DNA from: Abditibacteriaceae bacterium
Lineage (GTDB): Bacteria; Armatimonadota; Abditibacteriia; Abditibacteriales; Abditibacteriaceae
DNA length: 13,162 bases
Assembly: GCA_031372065.1 (NCBI GenBank)
Contig: JANMKN010000340.1
Span: forward strand, 1 to 13,162
Reading direction: 5' to 3'
Shown: positions 1 to 12,251 of the stretch, one piece after another
Position numbering within the stretch: the first letter of the stretch is position 1
How the letters are laid out: each line of letters begins with the position of its first letter
The notes under the pieces: generated by a model
What the model saw: only the letters and a program-made list of their open reading frames with translations
Told to the model about the DNA's origin: nothing
The model's database searches: none
Translations under genes and position numbers: made by a program

Positions 1-14
1 CATGGAATGTGGGG

Positions 15-120
15 CCGCTCCCCTGGGGGGTGTGGTTTGGTGAGGGCAACGAGGTCGTATCGCGACCTCTTATGCAACGGAAACCCTTCACCCCACCCCT
101 CTCCCCAAGGGGAGAGGGGT
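15..120. repeat. REPIN-like inverted pair of CCCTCACCCC..CCCTCTCCC..GGGAGAGGG-type palindromic repeats
   Basis: 84-119 reads cccttcaccccacccctctccccaaggggagagggg and contains a perfect 12-bp stem (95-106/109-120). 15-46 is a degenerate reverse complement of it. There is an inner hairpin gaggtcg-N5-cgacctc at 51-69. Confidence 0.6.
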
Positions 121-163
121 CTTTTCAAACAGCCTTTTAAAGGCGCGACACGCGCGGCTGGAG

Positions 164-550
164 TTACCAGAAAGCATTGTCTTCACGTTCCTGCACTTTT
201 TGGAGACGAAACTCAGCGATCTTGCGAATCAGTTCTTCGGGCAGAGGCTTGTCGTAGGGAAGCTGAAGGTAGTTCTTGGTCGTCTTGTGCGTTTCCAATT
301 CCTCGCGAAACGCTTCCAGCGCTGTCGGTGTGGGCGCGAAGTTGCAGTGTGCTTTGTGCGCGGAGAACGCGAACACGAAGCGCGGCTCCACGAAGTAGGG
401 CGTGCCCCACTTGATGATTTCTTCGGCTTCTGGCGCGACGCTTTTAAGAATCGCGTATAGCTGGCGCAAATGCGGCTGCGCCTCGCGCGGAGCCGCCTCA
501 ATATACTCGGCGATTGTCGTCGGGCGCTTGGTTGAAATGGGTGGTTGCAT
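164..550 (-). CDS. DUF1801/YdhG-like (iron chaperone family) protein
   Basis: Motifs TIAEYIEAAP, LRQLYAILKSVAPEAEEIIKWGTP and FPYDKPLP-like LPYDKPLPEELIRKI are typical of DUF1801 proteins. The ATG at 550 is preferred; the ORF is open to 589. Confidence 0.8.
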   Translation of the reverse strand: MQPPISTKRPTTIAEYIEAAPREAQPHLRQLYAILKSVAPEAEEIIKWGTPYFVEPRFVFAFSAHKAHCNFAPTPTALEAFREELETHKTTKNYLQLPYDKPLPEELIRKIAEFRLQKVQEREDNAFW

Positions 551-705
551 AGTTTGTAAGTATATAGGTAGCTCTTGAACGTCCATCACGCTGACAGATA
601 AAAGGCTACATTTGTGGCCGGGCGCAAGCCCCGCCTATTTAGATAGGCTCTAAGTTCGCCACCCCTTGCCAACATAGTCTCTTGTTCGTCCGCTGTTGGA
701 CATTT

Positions 706-1164
706 TCAGTTTGATACTTCGGCGTGCTTAAGCAACTCGGCAATGGCGATGAGTCCATACGATTCTGCAATTTCTATTGCTTCTTGATCAATACCTATTT
801 TAACGCTCGCGCCGTATTGTAGAAGAAGCTGAACAACATTGATGTCCGCCGTCTTGACAGCCTTGCACAATGGAGTCTCATCTTCAACATTCTTTGCATC
901 GGGATTTGCGCCGGCATCAAGCAAAAGTTTTATGATTTCCGTATCTGGCTTCTTGTATGAACAGGCCAAGTGCAACGGGGTTTGACCCCAGCTGTCTTCC
1001 TTATTAAGTTCTGCTTTTGCTTCCACTCCTGAATTTTGGCTTAAGATGAGCCGTATAGCTTCAACATCTTTCCATCGCACTGCCCACATCAATGGCGTGC
1101 GATTATATTCCTTATCGTCTTTGTAAGCAAGAATTCTCGATTCGACTGATTTGTTGTTCATCAT
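706..1164 (-). CDS. ankyrin repeat protein (about 3-4 repeats)
   Basis: Ankyrin consensus segments RTPLMWAV, GQTPLHLAC...IIKLLLDAGANPDAKN and ETPLCKAV...VVQLLLQYGA. AT-richer than the housekeeping genes. Confidence 0.9.
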   Translation of the reverse strand: MMNNKSVESRILAYKDDKEYNRTPLMWAVRWKDVEAIRLILSQNSGVEAKAELNKEDSWGQTPLHLACSYKKPDTEIIKLLLDAGANPDAKNVEDETPLCKAVKTADINVVQLLLQYGASVKIGIDQEAIEIAESYGLIAIAELLKHAEVSN

Positions 1165-1411
1165 TCGTTCATTTTAACATTTGCGCCTATAGCAACGCCG
1201 CGCGCCGCAGCCCAATAATGCAACTCACCCGCAAATTTCCGCCGTAAAAGCGCGTCTTTGTGCTGGAAAGTGCCCAAATTGGCCTGAAAAAGCCGCAAAA
1301 ACTCCTCTGGGGCATGATTCCGCGTTTTGTGGCGCAAAAATGCAAGCGTTTGATGCCTTTTGTCCCTTGTGAAGTGGCATTTTGAGGCTGGTTACACACA
1401 AAAATTGCTTG

Positions 1412-1915
1412 TAGAGGCGCAGGTTTTCATTGATGCTGTTCATGCGATGACTATGTGCTTTCATTCAAGTATTGTAGATGGTCGTGTAAAAAGTGCTTCA
1501 ACTAATTCAACACCTGTGGGTAAATATAAGTTGTATAAGTATGCTAATTCAGTCTATGTATGTGCTTATTCAATTCCTGTATGTGCTCATGTCAAATTTA
1601 TATGTGGTCATGTGAGTGTTCTATCTATTCATGTAAAATTTACATACTATAATTCGGACTTACACAAGCAGATGCAAGTTTGACATAAGCACATGCAAGA
1701 CTCACCTGAGCACATATAAGAATTGAATTGCAAGGTATACAAGATGAATAAGCACATGGATAGATTATATAATCAGATACAAGAAATCAATTATCATGTG
1801 TAAGTTCTATATGAACGCATGCAGCATTTGCGTGTTATCATGCAACATTTACAGAAGCAAAGATAGGTATTGAATGGACGCGCATAGACAAATCACGGAC
1901 GTTCGCATACAATAA
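1412..1915. repeat. bipartite degenerate 21-bp-period array with inverted left and right halves
   Basis: Left units include 1559 tatgtgcttattcaattcctg, 1580 tatgtgctcatgtcaaattta, 1601 tatgtggtcatgtgagtgttc and 1622 tatctattcatgtaaaattta. Right units include 1664 acaagcagatgcaagtttgac, 1685 ataagcacatgcaagactcac, 1706 ctgagcacatataagaattga and 1748 ataagcacatggatagattat. The right units are rotated reverse complements of the left consensus. Outer boundaries are fuzzy. Confidence 0.85.
1885..1913 (+). promoter_or_regulatory. sigma70-type promoter for the 321-aa gene
   Basis: TAGACA (1885-1890), a 17-bp spacer and TACAAT (1908-1913); each hexamer has one mismatch to consensus. GGAGGA RBS at 1941-1946 precedes the ATG at 1953. 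Confidence 0.7.
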
Positions 1916-1952
1916 AAACAGCGAAGAAGGGAATTTTTGGGGAGGAACAACT

Positions 1953-2918
1953 ATGCCTCGTTTGACTTTGCAAGAGCGCGAAGTGCTCATGGATACCTAT
2001 GACGGCCACTATGCGCTGCTTTTAAAGCAGTCTGCCGGTTGGGAAATTGAAGAAGGGTTTGGCCTTGGCGAATTACGCGCCCTATTTCAAACCTATCTCG
2101 ACACGCAAAACGACATCAGCACCAACGAAACAACCCTCAGCGTGCAGCGTAACCAACGCGATGCCTTATTTGGCCGCGATATCGAAGACATCAATGGCAT
2201 TTGGTTTGTGTTGGGCCTGTATAAGCAGATGGCGCGTTCCCGACTGCCCAAAAGTAGTGCGCTCCGCAAAACCGATCTAACCATCGGGAAAGTGTCCCCC
2301 GCCGCTTACGACGCGATTTTAGGCCGCTTCATCGAACACTGGAAACTCGTCAATGCCGCATTGCCTGTCAACAAGCCGCTGGTCATTGCCGGAAAAACCT
2401 TGGCCGATGTGCAAGCCCTGCGGCAGCAAATCGCGGATTTGAAGACCGAGATTACCGAAACGCTGCCCACGCGGTTAGAGGCCATGCGCAGCGAACGCGA
2501 ACAGTTGTTCGGCGATGTCATCGCGGACGAACGCGAACCGACTTCTATTATCGGACGGTTGGAAAGTTACGGCGTCGAAGTGAAATCGCAGTTTGCGGGC
2601 GACGTGCTGACCAAAACTATCCCCCGTATTTTCCCCGACGAAGCCGCCACGCCACGCTTTGCCTTCAATTTCCGCGTGGCGGGCAGCGATGTGGTTATCT
2701 GGTGGACGATGCGCGAAACCTTGCAAAATCGCGCTGCCGTGATTTATCTCAAAGCAGGCAGCTTCGCGGAAACTCGCTCAATTCCCGCCGCGCCCTATAA
2801 AGTCACCTTTGCCGGTGCCGAACCAGAAGACGGATTGGACGCAGTGGAATTGCGCAACGCCGACAGCAAAACCATCGCCAAGGGCCGCCACGATGCCAGT
2901 TTGAGCGAGCCTGCGTAA
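1953..2918 (+). CDS. hypothetical protein, 321 aa (predicted helical/coiled-coil N-terminal region plus a beta-rich C-terminal domain)
   Basis: Long ORF with a strong RBS, its own promoter and a terminator. Heptad-like segments (LADVQALRQQIADLKTEI), a Pro-rich linker (IPRIFPDEAATP), then alternating beta-strand patterns (RFAFNFRV, DVVIWW, AVIYLK, YKVTF, AVELRN). No signal peptide and no family recognised. Confidence 0.85.
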   Translation: MPRLTLQEREVLMDTYDGHYALLLKQSAGWEIEEGFGLGELRALFQTYLDTQNDISTNETTLSVQRNQRDALFGRDIEDINGIWFVLGLYKQMARSRLPKSSALRKTDLTIGKVSPAAYDAILGRFIEHWKLVNAALPVNKPLVIAGKTLADVQALRQQIADLKTEITETLPTRLEAMRSEREQLFGDVIADEREPTSIIGRLESYGVEVKSQFAGDVLTKTIPRIFPDEAATPRFAFNFRVAGSDVVIWWTMRETLQNRAAVIYLKAGSFAETRSIPAAPYKVTFAGAEPEDGLDAVELRNADSKTIAKGRHDASLSEPA

Positions 2919-2955
2919 GGCGTAGTCGGCATAGCAAGCCATGCCCTAAGAAAAC

Positions 2956-2993
2956 AAAAGAGCGCGACGAGAATCTTCTCGTCGCGCTCTTTT
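2956..2993. terminator. bidirectional rho-independent terminator
   Basis: Perfect 18-bp inverted repeat aaaagagcgcgacgagaa-tc-ttctcgtcgcgctctttt with an A-tract before and a T-tract after, between convergent genes. Confidence 0.85.
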
Positions 2994-3034
2994 ACATAAC
3001 CTCAAGTTGCTATCTATGGGTTGTGCCGCAGAAA

Positions 3035-3170
3035 ACCCCCACCTAATCCTGCCCGCAAGCGGGCGCCCGCCCAAAGGGGAGGAATTACGCGTCTCCATCG
3101 AAAAATGCGCTTCATAGGCATAGCTCTTCCCCTTTGGGCGGGCGCCCTCTGGGCAGGATTGGATGGGGGT
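3035..3170. repeat. REPIN-like element with about 46-49-bp inverted arms
   Basis: Left arm 3035-3083 is acccccacctaatcctgccc-gcaagc-gggcgcccgcccaaaggggagga. The reverse complement of right arm 3125-3170 is acccccatccaatcctgccc-aga-gggcgcccgcccaaaggggaaga. Confidence 0.8.
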
Positions 3171-3203
3171 ATATGCCAAGAAACCAAGCGTGATTTTGCT
3201 GAT

Positions 3204-3500
3204 TTACTCTTCGTCTGTTGACGTGGGGGTAGCGGGTGGCAATTGCTTTTGAGCGCGCAAAGTTTCAATTTCGAAGCGCAAGGCGAGTTTTTCACGCTCA
3301 TGCGCCTCGTTTTGTTGCATCAGTTGGATTTGATAGGCCAAATGTTGAATTGCTTCGCGGAGTTCGTGGACTTCGGCTTGTGTAGCAGCGCTAAGATCGC
3401 GCATTTCGGTTTGCAATTGCTTGAGATCGGCGCGATTTTGTTGTAAGTCTTTGCCAAAATTGAAAAGCAAATTGGCAATCTCGTAAAGACTCTTGAGCAT
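3204..3500 (-). CDS. hypothetical coiled-coil protein, 98 aa
   Basis: Amphipathic N-terminus (MLKSLYEIANLLFNFGKDL) followed by heptad repeats. Starts 2 nt after the stop of the upstream small ORF. Confidence 0.75.
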   Translation of the reverse strand: MLKSLYEIANLLFNFGKDLQQNRADLKQLQTEMRDLSAATQAEVHELREAIQHLAYQIQLMQQNEAHEREKLALRFEIETLRAQKQLPPATPTSTDEE

Positions 3501-3502
3501 GG

Positions 3503-3682
3503 TCAGGAGCCTTTCATTTGAGAGAGAATAACGCGGGTTTCAGCGCGCAAGGCTTCGATTTCGCGCTGGTCGTTAGTCATTTCTTCGCGCAAGTTTTTCA
3601 TGGCGGCTATGAATTGATCTATAGCCGATTGGTATTCTTCATCGGTCTTGTCAGGCACCGCTTTTTCCAGCATGGTTTCCAT
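3503..3682 (-). CDS. small hypothetical coiled-coil protein, 59 aa (absent from the ORF track)
   Basis: Manual translation gives METMLEKAVPDKTDEEYQSAIDQFIAAMKNLREEMTNDQREIEALRAETRVILSQMKGS*. GAGGTG RBS lies 7 nt upstream. It fills the gap between cysteine synthase and the 98-aa gene. Confidence 0.75.
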   Translation of the reverse strand: METMLEKAVPDKTDEEYQSAIDQFIAAMKNLREEMTNDQREIEALRAETRVILSQMKGS

Positions 3683-3712
3683 GATACTTCACCTCAAAAA
3701 ACATTTTAGCAC

Positions 3713-5184: not shown

Positions 5185-5257
5185 TTGTAGGGGCACGCTA
5201 CAGCGTGCCCTGATTTTGGTATTGACCATTCGGGCACGCCGTAGCGTGCCCCTACAA
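5185..5257. repeat. GTAG-family REP doublet (REPIN)
   Basis: ttgtaggggcacgctacagcgtgccc (5185-5210) and the inverted copy gggcacgccgtagcgtgcccctacaa (5232-5257) differ at 1 of 26 positions. Each has GTAG followed by a GGGCACG/CGTGCCC hairpin. Confidence 0.85.
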
Positions 5258-9386: not shown

Positions 9387-9426
9387 AAAATAGCACCTCT
9401 GGATTGCAATCCAGAGGTGCTATTTT
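9387..9426. terminator. perfect 40-bp palindrome; probable bidirectional terminator between the PPIase and lexA
   Basis: aaaatagcacctctggattg|caatccagaggtgctatttt, with no spacer and A/T tracts at both ends. Confidence 0.75.
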
Positions 9427-9608
9427 GCAATTTAACGCTTCCAGATCATGATTTATGACCTTTGGATTACAATCTATGACTACCAGATTACGATCTATGA
9501 CTCCAAGATTGCAATCTATGACTACCAGATTGCAATCTATGACTTCAAGATTACGATCTATGACTCCAAGATTACGATCTATGACTCCAAGATTACAATC
9601 CAGAGGGC
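9402..9608. repeat. 21-bp tandem repeat array, consensus GATTRCRATCTATGACTHCMA
   Basis: Six well-conserved units start at 9465, 9486, 9507, 9528, 9549 and 9570. Degenerate or terminal in-register units start at 9402, 9423, 9444 and 9591. Confidence 0.95.
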
Positions 9609-9656
9609 ATGAATACAAAAATTTCACTGTATTCCCACTTCTCTGCGGTGGAACAA

Positions 9657-10286
9657 TCAATTCCACGGCGAATGGCGTATTAAACCGCGAAAGGCGCCGA
9701 CGATTTGCACATCTTCGGCGGGAAATTCCATATCTCGATAAAGCGGATTCGAGGCGCGCAGAGTAATGGTATTTTCGCCCGGCTCTTGATGAAAATGTTT
9801 CAGCGTGGCGTCGCCTTCGACTTGCACGGCGGCAATTTCGCCTTTATGCAAGGCCACATCGGGCCGCAATAATACTAAATCGCCTTCTAAAATGCCGTCG
9901 CCGATCATCGAATCGCCTTTGACGCGCAACAAAAAATCGCCGGGGCGCGAGGCTAATACATCGTTGGTATTTTCGGCCCAATCTTCGGCTTGTTCAATCG
10001 CTTCGCTCAGTGGCCCCGCCGGAATGCTACCCAAAATCGGCAAGCCAAAACCATTGGCGGCTTTGCCTTCTTGAGTCAGCGTAATCACGCGCGGTTTGCC
10101 ACGCACGCCGCCTTGGATTTGCACAAATCCCATATTTTGCAGGCGATGCAAAGTCGGCGTCAGGCTCGATTCGCCAGCCAAGCCCATCCGTTCGGCTAAT
10201 TCGCGCACAATTGGGAATCCGCCTTCTTGCCACGCAATCGAAATCTGCTTTAAAACTTCTCTTTGACGCTTGCTTAATTCTTTCAT
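9657..10286 (-). CDS. lexA: LexA-family repressor (wHTH plus S24 peptidase)
   Basis: LSKRQREVL N-terminus, P-x-VRELAERMGL helix, Ala-Gly cleavage site (LGSIPAGP), catalytic Ser (VKGDSM) and catalytic Lys (ATLK). Confidence 0.88.
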   Translation of the reverse strand: MKELSKRQREVLKQISIAWQEGGFPIVRELAERMGLAGESSLTPTLHRLQNMGFVQIQGGVRGKPRVITLTQEGKAANGFGLPILGSIPAGPLSEAIEQAEDWAENTNDVLASRPGDFLLRVKGDSMIGDGILEGDLVLLRPDVALHKGEIAAVQVEGDATLKHFHQEPGENTITLRASNPLYRDMEFPAEDVQIVGAFRGLIRHSPWN

Positions 10287-10323
10287 CTTCGTCTTCCTAC
10301 AAAGGGATATATAAAATATGCCA

Positions 10324-10371
10324 CAAAAACGGCCATGCGGCGCGAAGGAGGCAGTCCCCGCGCCGCATGGC
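10324..10371 (-). terminator. rho-independent terminator after the AAA ATPase gene
   Basis: 13-bp arms gccatgcggcgcg (10332-10344) and cgcgccgcatggc (10359-10371), followed on the minus strand by cgtttttg. Confidence 0.65.
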
Positions 10372-10398
10372 TTGCTGTTGCGCTTAAAAATCGCGCTT

Positions 10399-11454
10399 TT
10401 ACGCCGAAGTTACAGCCGCACGGCCATTGGCGGCGCTAACGGGCGCTTCTTCCAACTCGCCCAAACGTCCGCCCCAATTTGCGGTGTCGCCTTCGTAAGG
10501 GTCATCCTCCGGCGATGCGTCTTTCAAACGAAAATCGCAATTGGGCTGACCAGTTCCGGCGTTGCCGCAAACCCAACCCGCGCCCGATTTGCCGCGCACA
10601 TAACGCGCAGGCACACCGCAATGACACTGAATGGCATCAGACTCGAAACCCTCAACAGGCGCGGCTGCGACGGGCTGTTCGACGCGTGGCGTCGGTGTTT
10701 GCACTGGCGGCGCCACTGGCGCTTCTGAGCGGGCGAAACCATTTTGTTTTTCCGTGCTGGTGCTGCCATCGGATAGCCACGCCACTAATTTTTGCGCGAC
10801 TTCGCGTCCCGCACGCGGAATGACCATGCCTGCCACTGCCGGACAACGCGTTTTGCCGATAATCAAGTTGTTGTCTTGATCTAAATCGGCGACCACATCG
10901 AATTCGTATTCCATGCCGTCGCGCTGCACTGGGGCGAGGCCCACTTTGCGAACCGAAATTTTGCCGGTTTTTTCGTTCTTTTCCTGCACATATTCAGTTT
11001 TAGCGCGCATGGTCGTGATGATATGCAAACGCGCATTCAAAATGGCATCCACCATCGAATTATGCATCGGCGTCACATCGCGCCACGCTGCGAACGTGTT
11101 GCCCGATTGACTGCGCTTCGTGGCACGCGTCACTTGGTCGAGCGCGCCATCTTTGCCCGTCCACGCATGGCTGAGACTATCAATAATCAGCACATTGTAA
11201 CCGGCTTCTTCGGCGGCTTGAATGGCGTCAATGTAATTCTGCGGGCTGAACGATTCCAATTCCAATACATCGAAATCGAAAATGTCCGAATACTTGCTGG
11301 CGCTGCCGCGTTCGGTGTCCACCACGGCAATCGGGCCGCCCAAATGGGTGGCGACGTTTAACGCCGTGTAGGTTTTGCCACTACCCGCGACGCCCATTAA
11401 GGCCATGCGCAGGCGCGATGATTTTTTAGATGCTTTTTGAAAACTCAGGCTCAT
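10399..11454 (-). CDS. AAA_24/Sak4-like P-loop ATPase with a C-terminal GRF-like zinc finger
   Basis: Walker A GVAGSGKT, DTERGS, Walker B LIIDSLSHAW, HIITTMRAK, QRDGMEYEFD and KTR. C-terminal CHCG...WVC...NCDF follows a P/A/T-rich linker. Confidence 0.85.
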   Translation of the reverse strand: MSLSFQKASKKSSRLRMALMGVAGSGKTYTALNVATHLGGPIAVVDTERGSASKYSDIFDFDVLELESFSPQNYIDAIQAAEEAGYNVLIIDSLSHAWTGKDGALDQVTRATKRSQSGNTFAAWRDVTPMHNSMVDAILNARLHIITTMRAKTEYVQEKNEKTGKISVRKVGLAPVQRDGMEYEFDVVADLDQDNNLIIGKTRCPAVAGMVIPRAGREVAQKLVAWLSDGSTSTEKQNGFARSEAPVAPPVQTPTPRVEQPVAAAPVEGFESDAIQCHCGVPARYVRGKSGAGWVCGNAGTGQPNCDFRLKDASPEDDPYEGDTANWGGRLGELEEAPVSAANGRAAVTSA

Positions 11455-11507
11455 GATCGTGTCCTTTCGCGCCCAAAGCGCGGCTTGTCATAGTTCTTGC
11501 TGCGCTT

Positions 11508-12029
11508 TTAAGCGACTTGCAATTCCGGCAAACGGGCGTCCGCCAAACGTGAAACGCTTTTGGAAACTTCTCCTTCGTAATGGAGGCTGTGATCGCTTTC
11601 ATGCAAGCGTCCCAAGCGTTCGTTGAATGAACGCAGCGGAACATAAAGTTCGTCTTCGTCAATGACTTCGGCGATGCGGGCGAAACCATGATCGCCAAAA
11701 GCCTCGCCGGACAAGTCATAATCTTCGTAGTCGTTTTGCGGCGCGTCATATTCCCAACGCGAACGACGCAATTGTGCGGCGCGAAACGCTTCGCGCTCGG
11801 TTTTGATGCGACGCGCGGTTTCCGTTTTGGCTTCTGCCTCGCGCATTTCGATGAGTCGCTGACGGGCGCTGCGCTGCGCCATCACCAGTTGCAAATCGGT
11901 GCGCCATGACAGGTCATCTTCGTCGCGCGCAATCGCTTTGAGCGAGCGCCGCGCCTCGGCCTGCAAACCGCGCAGGAACAAACCAAACATCCCCAACATT
12001 GCCAGCATCCACAGATTTTCCATTGTCAT
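11508..12029 (-). CDS. hypothetical protein with an N-terminal transmembrane helix, about 173 aa
   Basis: GGAGG RBS (12037-12041) precedes the ATG at 12029. Hydrophobic LWMLAMLGMFGLFL is followed by a charged helical region and an acidic region. Confidence 0.7.
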   Translation of the reverse strand: MTMENLWMLAMLGMFGLFLRGLQAEARRSLKAIARDEDDLSWRTDLQLVMAQRSARQRLIEMREAEAKTETARRIKTEREAFRAAQLRRSRWEYDAPQNDYEDYDLSGEAFGDHGFARIAEVIDEDELYVPLRSFNERLGRLHESDHSLHYEGEVSKSVSRLADARLPELQVA

Positions 12030-12251
12030 TGTCGTGCCTCCGTTGCCTTGTCTCTTGTGTTTTCGTTGTTGCTTTTGATTCGCAATCGCCAAATTCGGCT
12101 TTTCTGCAAACCTTGTTTTTCCCGTCGCAATTCATTTTGAATGCGATTCAGCCCGAAAAAAAGCCATTTTCATGCCAAAAATCAAGAAATTTTGCAAAAA
12201 GTCGTGAAATTTAGCGACTTATCCCTATATTTAGGCATTTTTGCTGGCGCC

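Follow-up and report, generated by a model that had tools for sequence, protein, structure and literature searches.

A non-coding 21-bp repeat array with two opposed arms upstream of a helical-protein gene in an Abditibacteriaceae genome

The window, a stretch of 13,162 nucleotides from an Abditibacteriaceae genome (G000, 94% complete), contains at positions 1433 to 1905 a real non-coding array of 21-base repeats arranged in two opposed halves. This array is the upstream part of a self-contained cassette made up of the array, a predicted promoter, a gene for a helical/Ig protein and a terminator-like hairpin, and arrays of the same period recur throughout the genome and beside homologous genes elsewhere in the phylum. 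A preliminary description of this DNA, which treated the array on its own, missed both its tie to the downstream gene (all five members of the gene's family in this genome carry upstream arrays) and the genome-wide class to which it belongs. Labels such as f2370 and A6 were coined in this analysis. The relevant features of the window are as follows.

1197..1327, no strand: left flank common to the paralogous cassette, 91% identical over 131 nt with C125 and 78% over 98 nt with the C211 orphan array
1433..1663, plus strand: left arm, about 11 degenerate 21-bp units with a consensus of approximately TATGTGCTCATGTAATTCTTA, without indels and decaying outward (autocorrelation and profile scan)
1654..1905, minus strand: right arm, 12 units of the left-arm family inverted, the last unit weak and overlapping the promoter-like site
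1885..1913, plus strand: predicted sigma70-like promoter, TAGACA-17-TACAAT, 10/12 matches, hexamers and spacing identical in the C125 paralogue
1941..1946, plus strand: ribosome-binding site GGAGGA, from the sequence
1953..2918, plus strand: gene for a 321-aa protein with a helical/Ig-FN3-like product; its four paralogues elsewhere in the genome are likewise all preceded by a 20-21-bp array
2954..2995, no strand: hairpin with an 18-bp perfect stem flanked by A/T tails on either side, which probably terminates transcription in both directions at the end of the cassette
9387..9618, no strand: second, orphan 21-bp array of another sequence family (common to C7 and C51), between convergent cyclophilin and lexA-like genes

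Relative to 300 dinucleotide shuffles, identity at a lag of 21 was 0.459 in the left arm (z 6.6), 0.494 in the right arm (z 7.3) and 0.470 over both (z 9.4), with harmonic peaks at lags 42, 63 and 84, while the four top reverse-complement diagonals (sums 3296, 3338, 3317 and 3275) all fell at 20 modulo 21. The preliminary description had claimed a 21-bp period free of indels and had proposed autocorrelation and inverted diagonals, each compared with shuffles, as the check; the significant lag-21 peak and the single register of the diagonals bear the claim out. Its three cross-arm matches (1568-1589 with 1707-1728, 20/22; 1578-1596 with 1679-1697, 17/19; 1599-1617 with 1700-1718, 17/19) are exact, and a recount of the two lines between 1501 and 1620, for which it gave a GC content of 30-35%, returned 0.30 and 0.35. 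It had also proposed about 12 units in each half, over 1412-1663 and 1664-1915. The opposed arms and the 12 right-hand units stand, but the left arm has about 11 units starting at 1433, and the right arm spans 1654-1905. In the profile scan the two arms overlap at the orientation flip, at approximately 1654-1663, in agreement with the flip placed earlier near 1650-1660, and the units are best conserved there; unit 1412 was not separable from background, and left-arm unit 1517 scored at background level. The unit profile was trained on 1538-1642 plus the right arm, so that only 1433-1537 and 1643 are out of sample. Column conservation ranged from 0.44 to 1.0 with no unique spacer block, and with a period of 21 and no alternation of constant repeat and unique spacer the array is not a CRISPR, as had been stated.

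The array ends at the -35 box of the predicted promoter, and the same is true of the C125 paralogue. The order of elements is array, promoter-like site and gene, with no terminator-like site between array and gene. The four paralogues of the 321-aa protein (32-63% identity) lie in unrelated chromosomal neighbourhoods, and the arrays upstream of these genes and the window's gene (5/5) have a period of 21 or 20. Between the window and C125, the closest paralogue, the arrays differ at approximately 51% of positions, with gaps of 63 and 21 nt. The left flank at 1197..1327 shows a weak periodicity of A/T runs at 10, 20, 21 and 30 bp, seen without a shuffle control. Around the cassette, the window holds an ankyrin gene, a DUF1801 gene and a housekeeping block, with no Rep or Par gene nearby. 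The first 3.7 kb of the window, including the cassette, had no match beside the conserved cysM block in genomes G001-G003; this segment (1-3700) is lineage-specific, comprising the DUF1801, ankyrin, cassette and small coiled-coil genes unmatched beside cysM-sat. GC-rich REP-like palindromes occur at 3035-3170, 5185-5257 and 83-120 of the window, those of the 3035-3170 type being multicopy in the genome, and in the C125 paralogue the insertion of an element similar to them separates the array from the gene. Farther along, at 9657-12092, a lexA-like gene, an AAA_24 ATPase gene and a 194-aa gene form a phage- or repair-like trio.

A scan of the G000 genome yielded 294 segments, 250 of which passed a period-21 filter (median of 11 units per array; 41 arrays per Mb); 210 of these were intergenic once 8 heptamer arrays and 32 overlapping rough gene calls had been set aside. 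The period is specific: over 1.85 Mb there were 76 arrays at 21, 8 at 20 and 3 at 22, while nine further periods gave no array. Arrays with a period of 20 or 22 bp are found next to members of the same gene families (the C137 and C131 paralogue arrays and C122:29500-29760 of G000, as well as L086 and L088). The 210 arrays fall into at least 85 sequence families, many of them unrelated; 45 lie upstream of genes from about 17 small families, 6 lie alongside such genes, and 159 are orphans. The gene families for which alignments or models were made encode helical proteins, some with and some lacking an FN3-like domain. The palindromic layout is a minority form, a point that the preliminary description missed: among 200 arrays, 100 had a single orientation, 43 had one or two terminal inverted units, 40 were mixed and 17 formed two clean opposed halves. 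The layout characterises the unit family to which the window array belongs (C369, C161, C173, C125, C211, C281 and C60) and is found also at homologue loci L113 and L083. The second array of the window ends in an inverted unit that forms a perfect 20-bp hairpin and could serve as a bidirectional terminator; G002 and G003 lack this array at the corresponding site and have a different, heptamer-like palindromic element there. Tandem arrays of the heptamer AGTGGTC, a separate family as described for cyanobacteria and Beggiatoaceae, occur in G000 at C189:6784, C280:39817, C320:6171, C351:63313 and C357:6693.

Promoter matches of at least 9/12 lie just after 24 of the 45 gene-linked arrays, compared with 5/45 inside arrays, 7/38 upstream of arrays and 14% of 1690 control genes. 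Because the match follows the array in these 24 cases, at a rate above the controls, the array should usually lie outside the predicted mRNA; the other 21 of the 45 have no such match. The f2370 family of 150-160-aa proteins shows a different arrangement, in which the array directly follows the stop codon in 6/7 genes (e.g. L036 and L043), and the same post-stop position is seen at L102 and L103 in two other genomes.

The association of arrays with genes was examined in two ways. Within the genome, 54/66 genes of 16 small-gene families have an array versus 24/550 control genes, with 5 of the 12 misses at contig ends, but this count is circular because the families were picked through array adjacency. 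Homologues of the A6 family in other genomes, which shares homology with the family of the window's gene (HHalign 92%, E 7e-7) and is present in 19/251 genomes of the phylum including G000, provided an independent set of 23 loci outside G000 and 2 metagenome loci, with 3 fragment loci and 1 locus without upstream DNA left out. Upstream of these genes 21 was the best of 18 periods at 10/14 full-length and 6/11 partial loci (16/25), versus 4/24 in downstream controls; at the remaining 9/25 loci another period scored best. Loci with A3, A5 and A4 homologues outside G000 mostly follow suit, with arrays of period 21 or 22 within approximately 700 bp upstream at L045, L086, L087, L088, L090 and L093, and downstream arrays at L102 and L103, while L085, L089, L091 and L104 have no adjacent array. 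The cross-genome comparison rests on these related families (A6, A5, A4 and A3); no locus of the window's exact family was obtained outside the genome.

What is retained at these loci is the spacing rather than the sequence. Conservation by column had excess power at 10.5 bp (z 7.5) and at 21 bp (z 4.5), although autocorrelation at lags 10/11 was not above the shuffled mean (z 0.3). For five pairs of paralogues, divergence of the array versus that at four-fold degenerate sites was 49/20, 45/32, 45/18, 33/31 and 51/46%, approximately equal in two of the five; array sequence thus appears, from these alignments, to turn over usually faster than synonymous sites while the period is kept. The same change recurs in many units of diverged paralogue arrays, and array units are mosaics of a few alleles. 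A sixth pair departs from this pattern, the arrays at C41:20540-20791 and C102:7359-7694 of G000 differing by 3% and their genes by 34%, which indicates a recent conversion of the array and gene start between paralogues. Among proteins 82-91% identical to one another, unit consensuses matched at only 10-13/21 positions against a background of 9-10, and a strict code of cognate recognition is therefore unlikely.

The 321-aa protein itself gives few clues to function. An AlphaFold model (pLDDT 87, pTM 0.58, 9 sequences) predicts two helical modules (approximately residues 1-110 and 111-228), homologous to each other (HHalign 98.7%), followed by a C-terminal Ig/FN3-like beta sandwich weakly resembling FN3 domains (best Foldseek E 1.3e-3). 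The best VIA hit was to chemoreceptor helical bundles (Z 8.8), a score that helical proteins commonly reach. With a net charge of -6 and a pI of 5.4 the 321-aa protein is acidic, as are its paralogues (-12 to -20). Pfam, NCBIfam, PHROGs, PADLOC and PDB sequences gave no significant match and no known DNA-binding domain, and no toxin family was matched; nor did the families and folds listed for it include a Cas, Tas or Vipr effector, families outside those listed being beyond the reach of the fold search. PF19775 (DUF6261) had no Pfam match in the window protein or 18 others, and an Atlas cluster with 10% DUF6261 scored only 0.84. In the Atlas its neighbours are hypothetical proteins from Verrucomicrobiota and Bacteroidota, with 23% fn3 in one of the clusters, and serve as leads only. 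As a single query the window protein matched 0/60 relatives, searches with it or with A1 gave no confirmed locus in genome or metagenome collections, and a plasmid search gave no match.

We tentatively favour, at somewhat less than even probability, the reading that the array is a phased DNA platform for a protein, most likely one of the downstream gene's superfamily, that controls the promoter at the array's edge. According to this model the protein would assemble on the array with one unit per two helical turns, binding cooperatively and with loose sequence specificity, such that the reader takes the spacing rather than the sequence; the assembled protein would then control the edge promoter, in a form of autoregulation. 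In-register recombination may homogenise the units and sometimes invert them, which would generate two opposed halves, and the orphans may be recent copies of arrays made within the genome. The basis of the proposal is that the array is non-coding, keeps a 21-bp register, is positioned at a -35 box, is linked to particular genes and undergoes rapid concerted change with whole-unit indels, and that orphan sites are empty in relatives. The promoter position, family linkage, 21-bp geometry with its enriched A-tracts, conserved period with sequence turnover and spread of orphans all support it. A phased protein-binding platform was among the readings offered in the preliminary description and fits best of them, given that the array ends at a -35 box conserved in a paralogue and that its period is kept without its sequence. 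Counting against a simple operator are the acidity of the protein, its lack of a known DNA-binding domain and the lack of sequence co-conservation, and an operator role is harder to explain for the f2370 arrays that follow stop codons. The modest 10.5-bp signal, the 21/45 arrays without a promoter match and the 9/25 loci with another best period are further points against a platform, as are the restriction of A-tracts in the window's unit family to its AT-rich members and the two paralogue pairs whose arrays diverge about as much as their four-fold sites.

It is unlikely that the array is instead transcribed as a separate non-coding RNA, here a long register-slipping hairpin, that is bound or processed by the helical protein in 21-nt steps. 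The window array has a predicted fold of -154 kcal/mol (z -5.8), and the orphan at C161 reaches z -15.3; the window array folds well because any opposed repeat must. The opposed layout, with the TG-word arm first, is found in at least 7 of the 9 family members examined as well as at L113 and L083, the f2370 arrays directly follow stop codons, and a -10-like box lies within the conserved left flank of C125, all of which would suit a transcript. Selection on an exact RNA hairpin finds no support, however. Wobble pairs show no strand bias (182 G-U versus 161 A-C, p 0.28, in the directional ones among 31 arrays), and identity across arms (9.6/21) is approximately that within arms (9.4/21). Half of the arrays (100/200) have a single orientation, and their units exceed shuffles only slightly in palindromy (11.3 versus 10.6), the best promoter match is downstream of the array, Rfam gave no match over 1412-1915 at E <= 1, and a tRNA scan found nothing over the array. 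The long structured RNA suggested in the preliminary description accordingly has a stable fold but no specific support.

To a similarly low degree, we consider that the arrays may be selfish or neutral minisatellites made by a 21-bp ruler, possibly an activity of the adjacent protein, and copied in the manner of MITEs with no regulatory role. Their patchy abundance points in this direction: there are 250 in G000 and, at a still higher density, 28 in 400 kb of G004 (contig C1, L141-L160), where many share a CGTCTGTCA or GAAGAATTA word, and none in 296 kb of G003, 167 kb of G002 or 100 kb each of G041 and G162. A 231-kb sample of G001-G003 contained one heptamer-type match; G003 has gene-linked arrays without orphans, and none of five family queries matched in G002 (79% complete). 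At all 7 comparable orphan sites the flanking genes were found adjacent to each other, and the site empty, in G002/G003, and at the C161 orphan site the terminator and promoter region lying on either side of the G000 array are still present in a relative, so that gain of orphans in G000 is a simpler reading than loss. A shared unit family with a gene-linked array was found for 88/159 orphans (62 at a stricter threshold). Divergence that is near neutral or faster, as seen in a related strain (run X4), where 26/192 letters differ over 1751-1942 without gaps compared with 0.6-7.5% in six gene pieces, is also consistent with a neutral repeat, and the terminal inverted units of 43/200 arrays suggest fold-back copying. 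On the other hand, the fixed -35 position and the retention of arrays beside homologous genes across several families of the phylum count against such minisatellites. Orphan pairs of the same family rarely share flanks (10 matches among 163 pairs), which indicates that there are no common MITE ends, and a spreading agent is not apparent, there being no reverse transcriptase found in G000 and only 1/7 Y1 transposases within 1 kb of an array.

Less probable still is a role for host factors, namely RNA polymerase alpha-CTD, a nucleoid protein or A-tract curvature, which would read the array at a strong promoter while the downstream protein has an unrelated job. This would account for the placement of the array just upstream of the -35 box, the acidity of the partner proteins and a conservation that is fixed in period and free of sequence. 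A-tracts of at least four are present in 49/85 units versus 25 expected and are better conserved than other columns, once per 21 bp. Within the window's unit family, A-tracts are confined to AT-rich members and are missing from GC-rich ones such as C125, which a host factor reading curvature does not explain, any more than it explains a period of 21 instead of 10.5 or one gene superfamily that always carries an array versus 24/550 control genes.

We regard it as very improbable that the array is, as the preliminary description had entertained, an invertible or diversifying cassette, which would be a programmed one such as a phase switch or guide array. The opposed halves, the mosaic units drawn from few alleles and the 26/192 letters that differ in the related strain are what such a cassette might leave, but runs X1-X3, of the same strain type, showed no variants, indels or inversion joints where they covered the array, with the limit that they come from one study at low depth and as contigs only, which drop rare variants, and that X1 may be the source of the window. 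Furthermore, no recombinase or reverse transcriptase adjoins the array, flipping an array this close to symmetric would have little effect, and the promoter-like site is at its edge.

A coding origin for the array, as a heptad-repeat sequence of 7 codons per unit that is cryptic or has decayed, is the least credible reading and already largely refuted: the left arm falls inside a 107-aa open frame (1360-1683), one frame resembles an amphipathic heptad helix in the window's unit family (C161, C173 and C125) and open frames are somewhat commoner than in column shuffles, but the array has 5-13 stops in each of six frames, the heptad-like frame having 5 stops in the window and 4 in C161. Because of these two frames the heptad was tested over 85 independent unit families, in which there was no 3-nt codon periodicity (z -1.9), no synonymous bias (best-frame synonymous fraction 0.305 versus a null of 0.321) and no enrichment of heptad-like consensuses (54/85 versus 57 expected), and the coiled-coil score, computed with approximate home-made weights, was 1.88 compared with 1.72 for a block null, 1.78 for reversed sequence and 1.45 for plain column permutation. 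With stops in all frames and no open or synonymously constrained frame, an intact or decayed heptad-repeat gene is rejected, and so is the ordinary decayed repeat-protein gene that had been named as the outcome that would undo the preliminary description.

Bacterial operators and centromeres are normally conserved in sequence together with their protein. Here the spacing persists throughout a phylum, but one near-identical paralogue has a different array sequence from the next, and a single genome has approximately 200 copies belonging to dozens of sequence families. If the platform protein reads the two-turn period, this would be a new mode of DNA recognition and would provide a testable handle on a large hypothetical helical/FN3 superfamily; if a 21-bp ruler generates the arrays, it would be a new source of dispersed repeats that reshape promoter regions within a genus. 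A broader and rather doubtful idea is that these loci represent a widespread, undescribed two-part element, in which helical-module proteins of one superfamily would polymerise along nucleic acid in constant steps of 21 bases, this ruler setting and refreshing the period of the arrays as their sequence drifts, and that in some genomes the arrays escape their genes to occupy hundreds of intergenic sites, either as a genome-wide binding or chromatin-like network or as a new kind of mobile repeat that can do without known types of transposase and reverse transcriptase.

Among known systems, type III toxin-antitoxin loci (ToxIN-like) have, in order, a promoter, RNA repeats of 34-60 nt, a terminator and an RNase toxin. 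The window's order of array, promoter-like site and gene, with no terminator between, a period of 21 and no toxin family match, rejects this assignment. Centromere and operator iteron arrays, such as those of R1 parC-ParR, F sopC and the KfrA operators, are bound by a polymerising cognate protein. They resemble the present arrays in that some twelve phased repeats, which may form two opposed clusters, sit by the promoter or end of a small-protein gene, whereas the window's class is chromosomal, with approximately 200 copies in at least 85 families and no Par ATPase, Rep or known DNA-binding fold, and its unit sequence is not conserved between near-identical partner proteins. Of the parC- or iteron-like platform raised in the preliminary description, the form that belongs to a replicon is thus rejected, as is a plasmid iteron or partition centromere generally, no Rep or Par gene adjoining the array and the five paralogues lying in unrelated chromosomal contexts.

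As regards spread, BrickBuilt of Porphyromonas gingivalis is a 23-nt spacer-less minisatellite MITE with 19 copies, a shared leader and tail and inverted ends (PMC4596501). It is likewise an intergenic, spacer-less tandem array near two helical turns, dispersed and associated with promoter activity, but it is a single family with shared ends (PMC4596501), while here the sequences are many and unrelated, the period is 21 bp, ends are not shared and the arrays are linked to a gene superfamily; with no shared leader or tail, and only the 10 flank matches noted above, a BrickBuilt-type MITE is rejected. The REP/REPIN-RAYT elements are similar in their hundreds of extragenic copies in groups, inverted arrangement, cognate gene by some copies and patchy distribution, and differ in that the present arrays have about 12 head-to-tail units rather than short palindromic doublets and a linked gene that is not a Y1 transposase (PMC3116915). 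With a median of 11 head-to-tail units, half of the arrays in one orientation, no REP-doublet units and no Y1 transposase in the window, they too are rejected. Dispersed heptamer repeats of Beggiatoaceae, Cyanobacteria and Bacteroidetes consist of one 7-bp word in more than 100 intergenic sets, which like the present arrays are tandem, upstream of genes, patchy and of proposed regulatory role (PMC4679880); autocorrelation of the window array has no peak at lag 7 or 14, however, and heptamer substructure is absent. TIGR, VIPR, CRISPR and the arrays of Sun et al. share a periodic intergenic array beside a cognate gene, and the accessible text of the latter names periods of 60-79, 18, 5, 7, 8 and 10 nt, with 21 not named there, and includes clusters #8,581 and #156,623, in which an array is followed by its reverse complement, as opposed 7/8-nt arrays (10.64898/2026.10.21.760802). 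Where TIGR, VIPR and CRISPR have, on that account, a fixed repeat and a free spacer, all columns of the 21-nt units here vary among few alleles, and the window array lies upstream of a predicted promoter (10.64898/2026.10.21.760802); a guide array of these kinds is rejected on the period of 21 and the lack of alternation of constant repeat and unique spacer at 60-79, 18 or 5 nt. Literature searches with little reach into subscription journals found no description of such arrays, which may nevertheless be present in the supplements or the database that accompany the work of Sun et al. By analogy, the window's class would appear to work most like centromere and operator arrays and to spread like BrickBuilt and REPINs, while failing a defining feature of each family tested.
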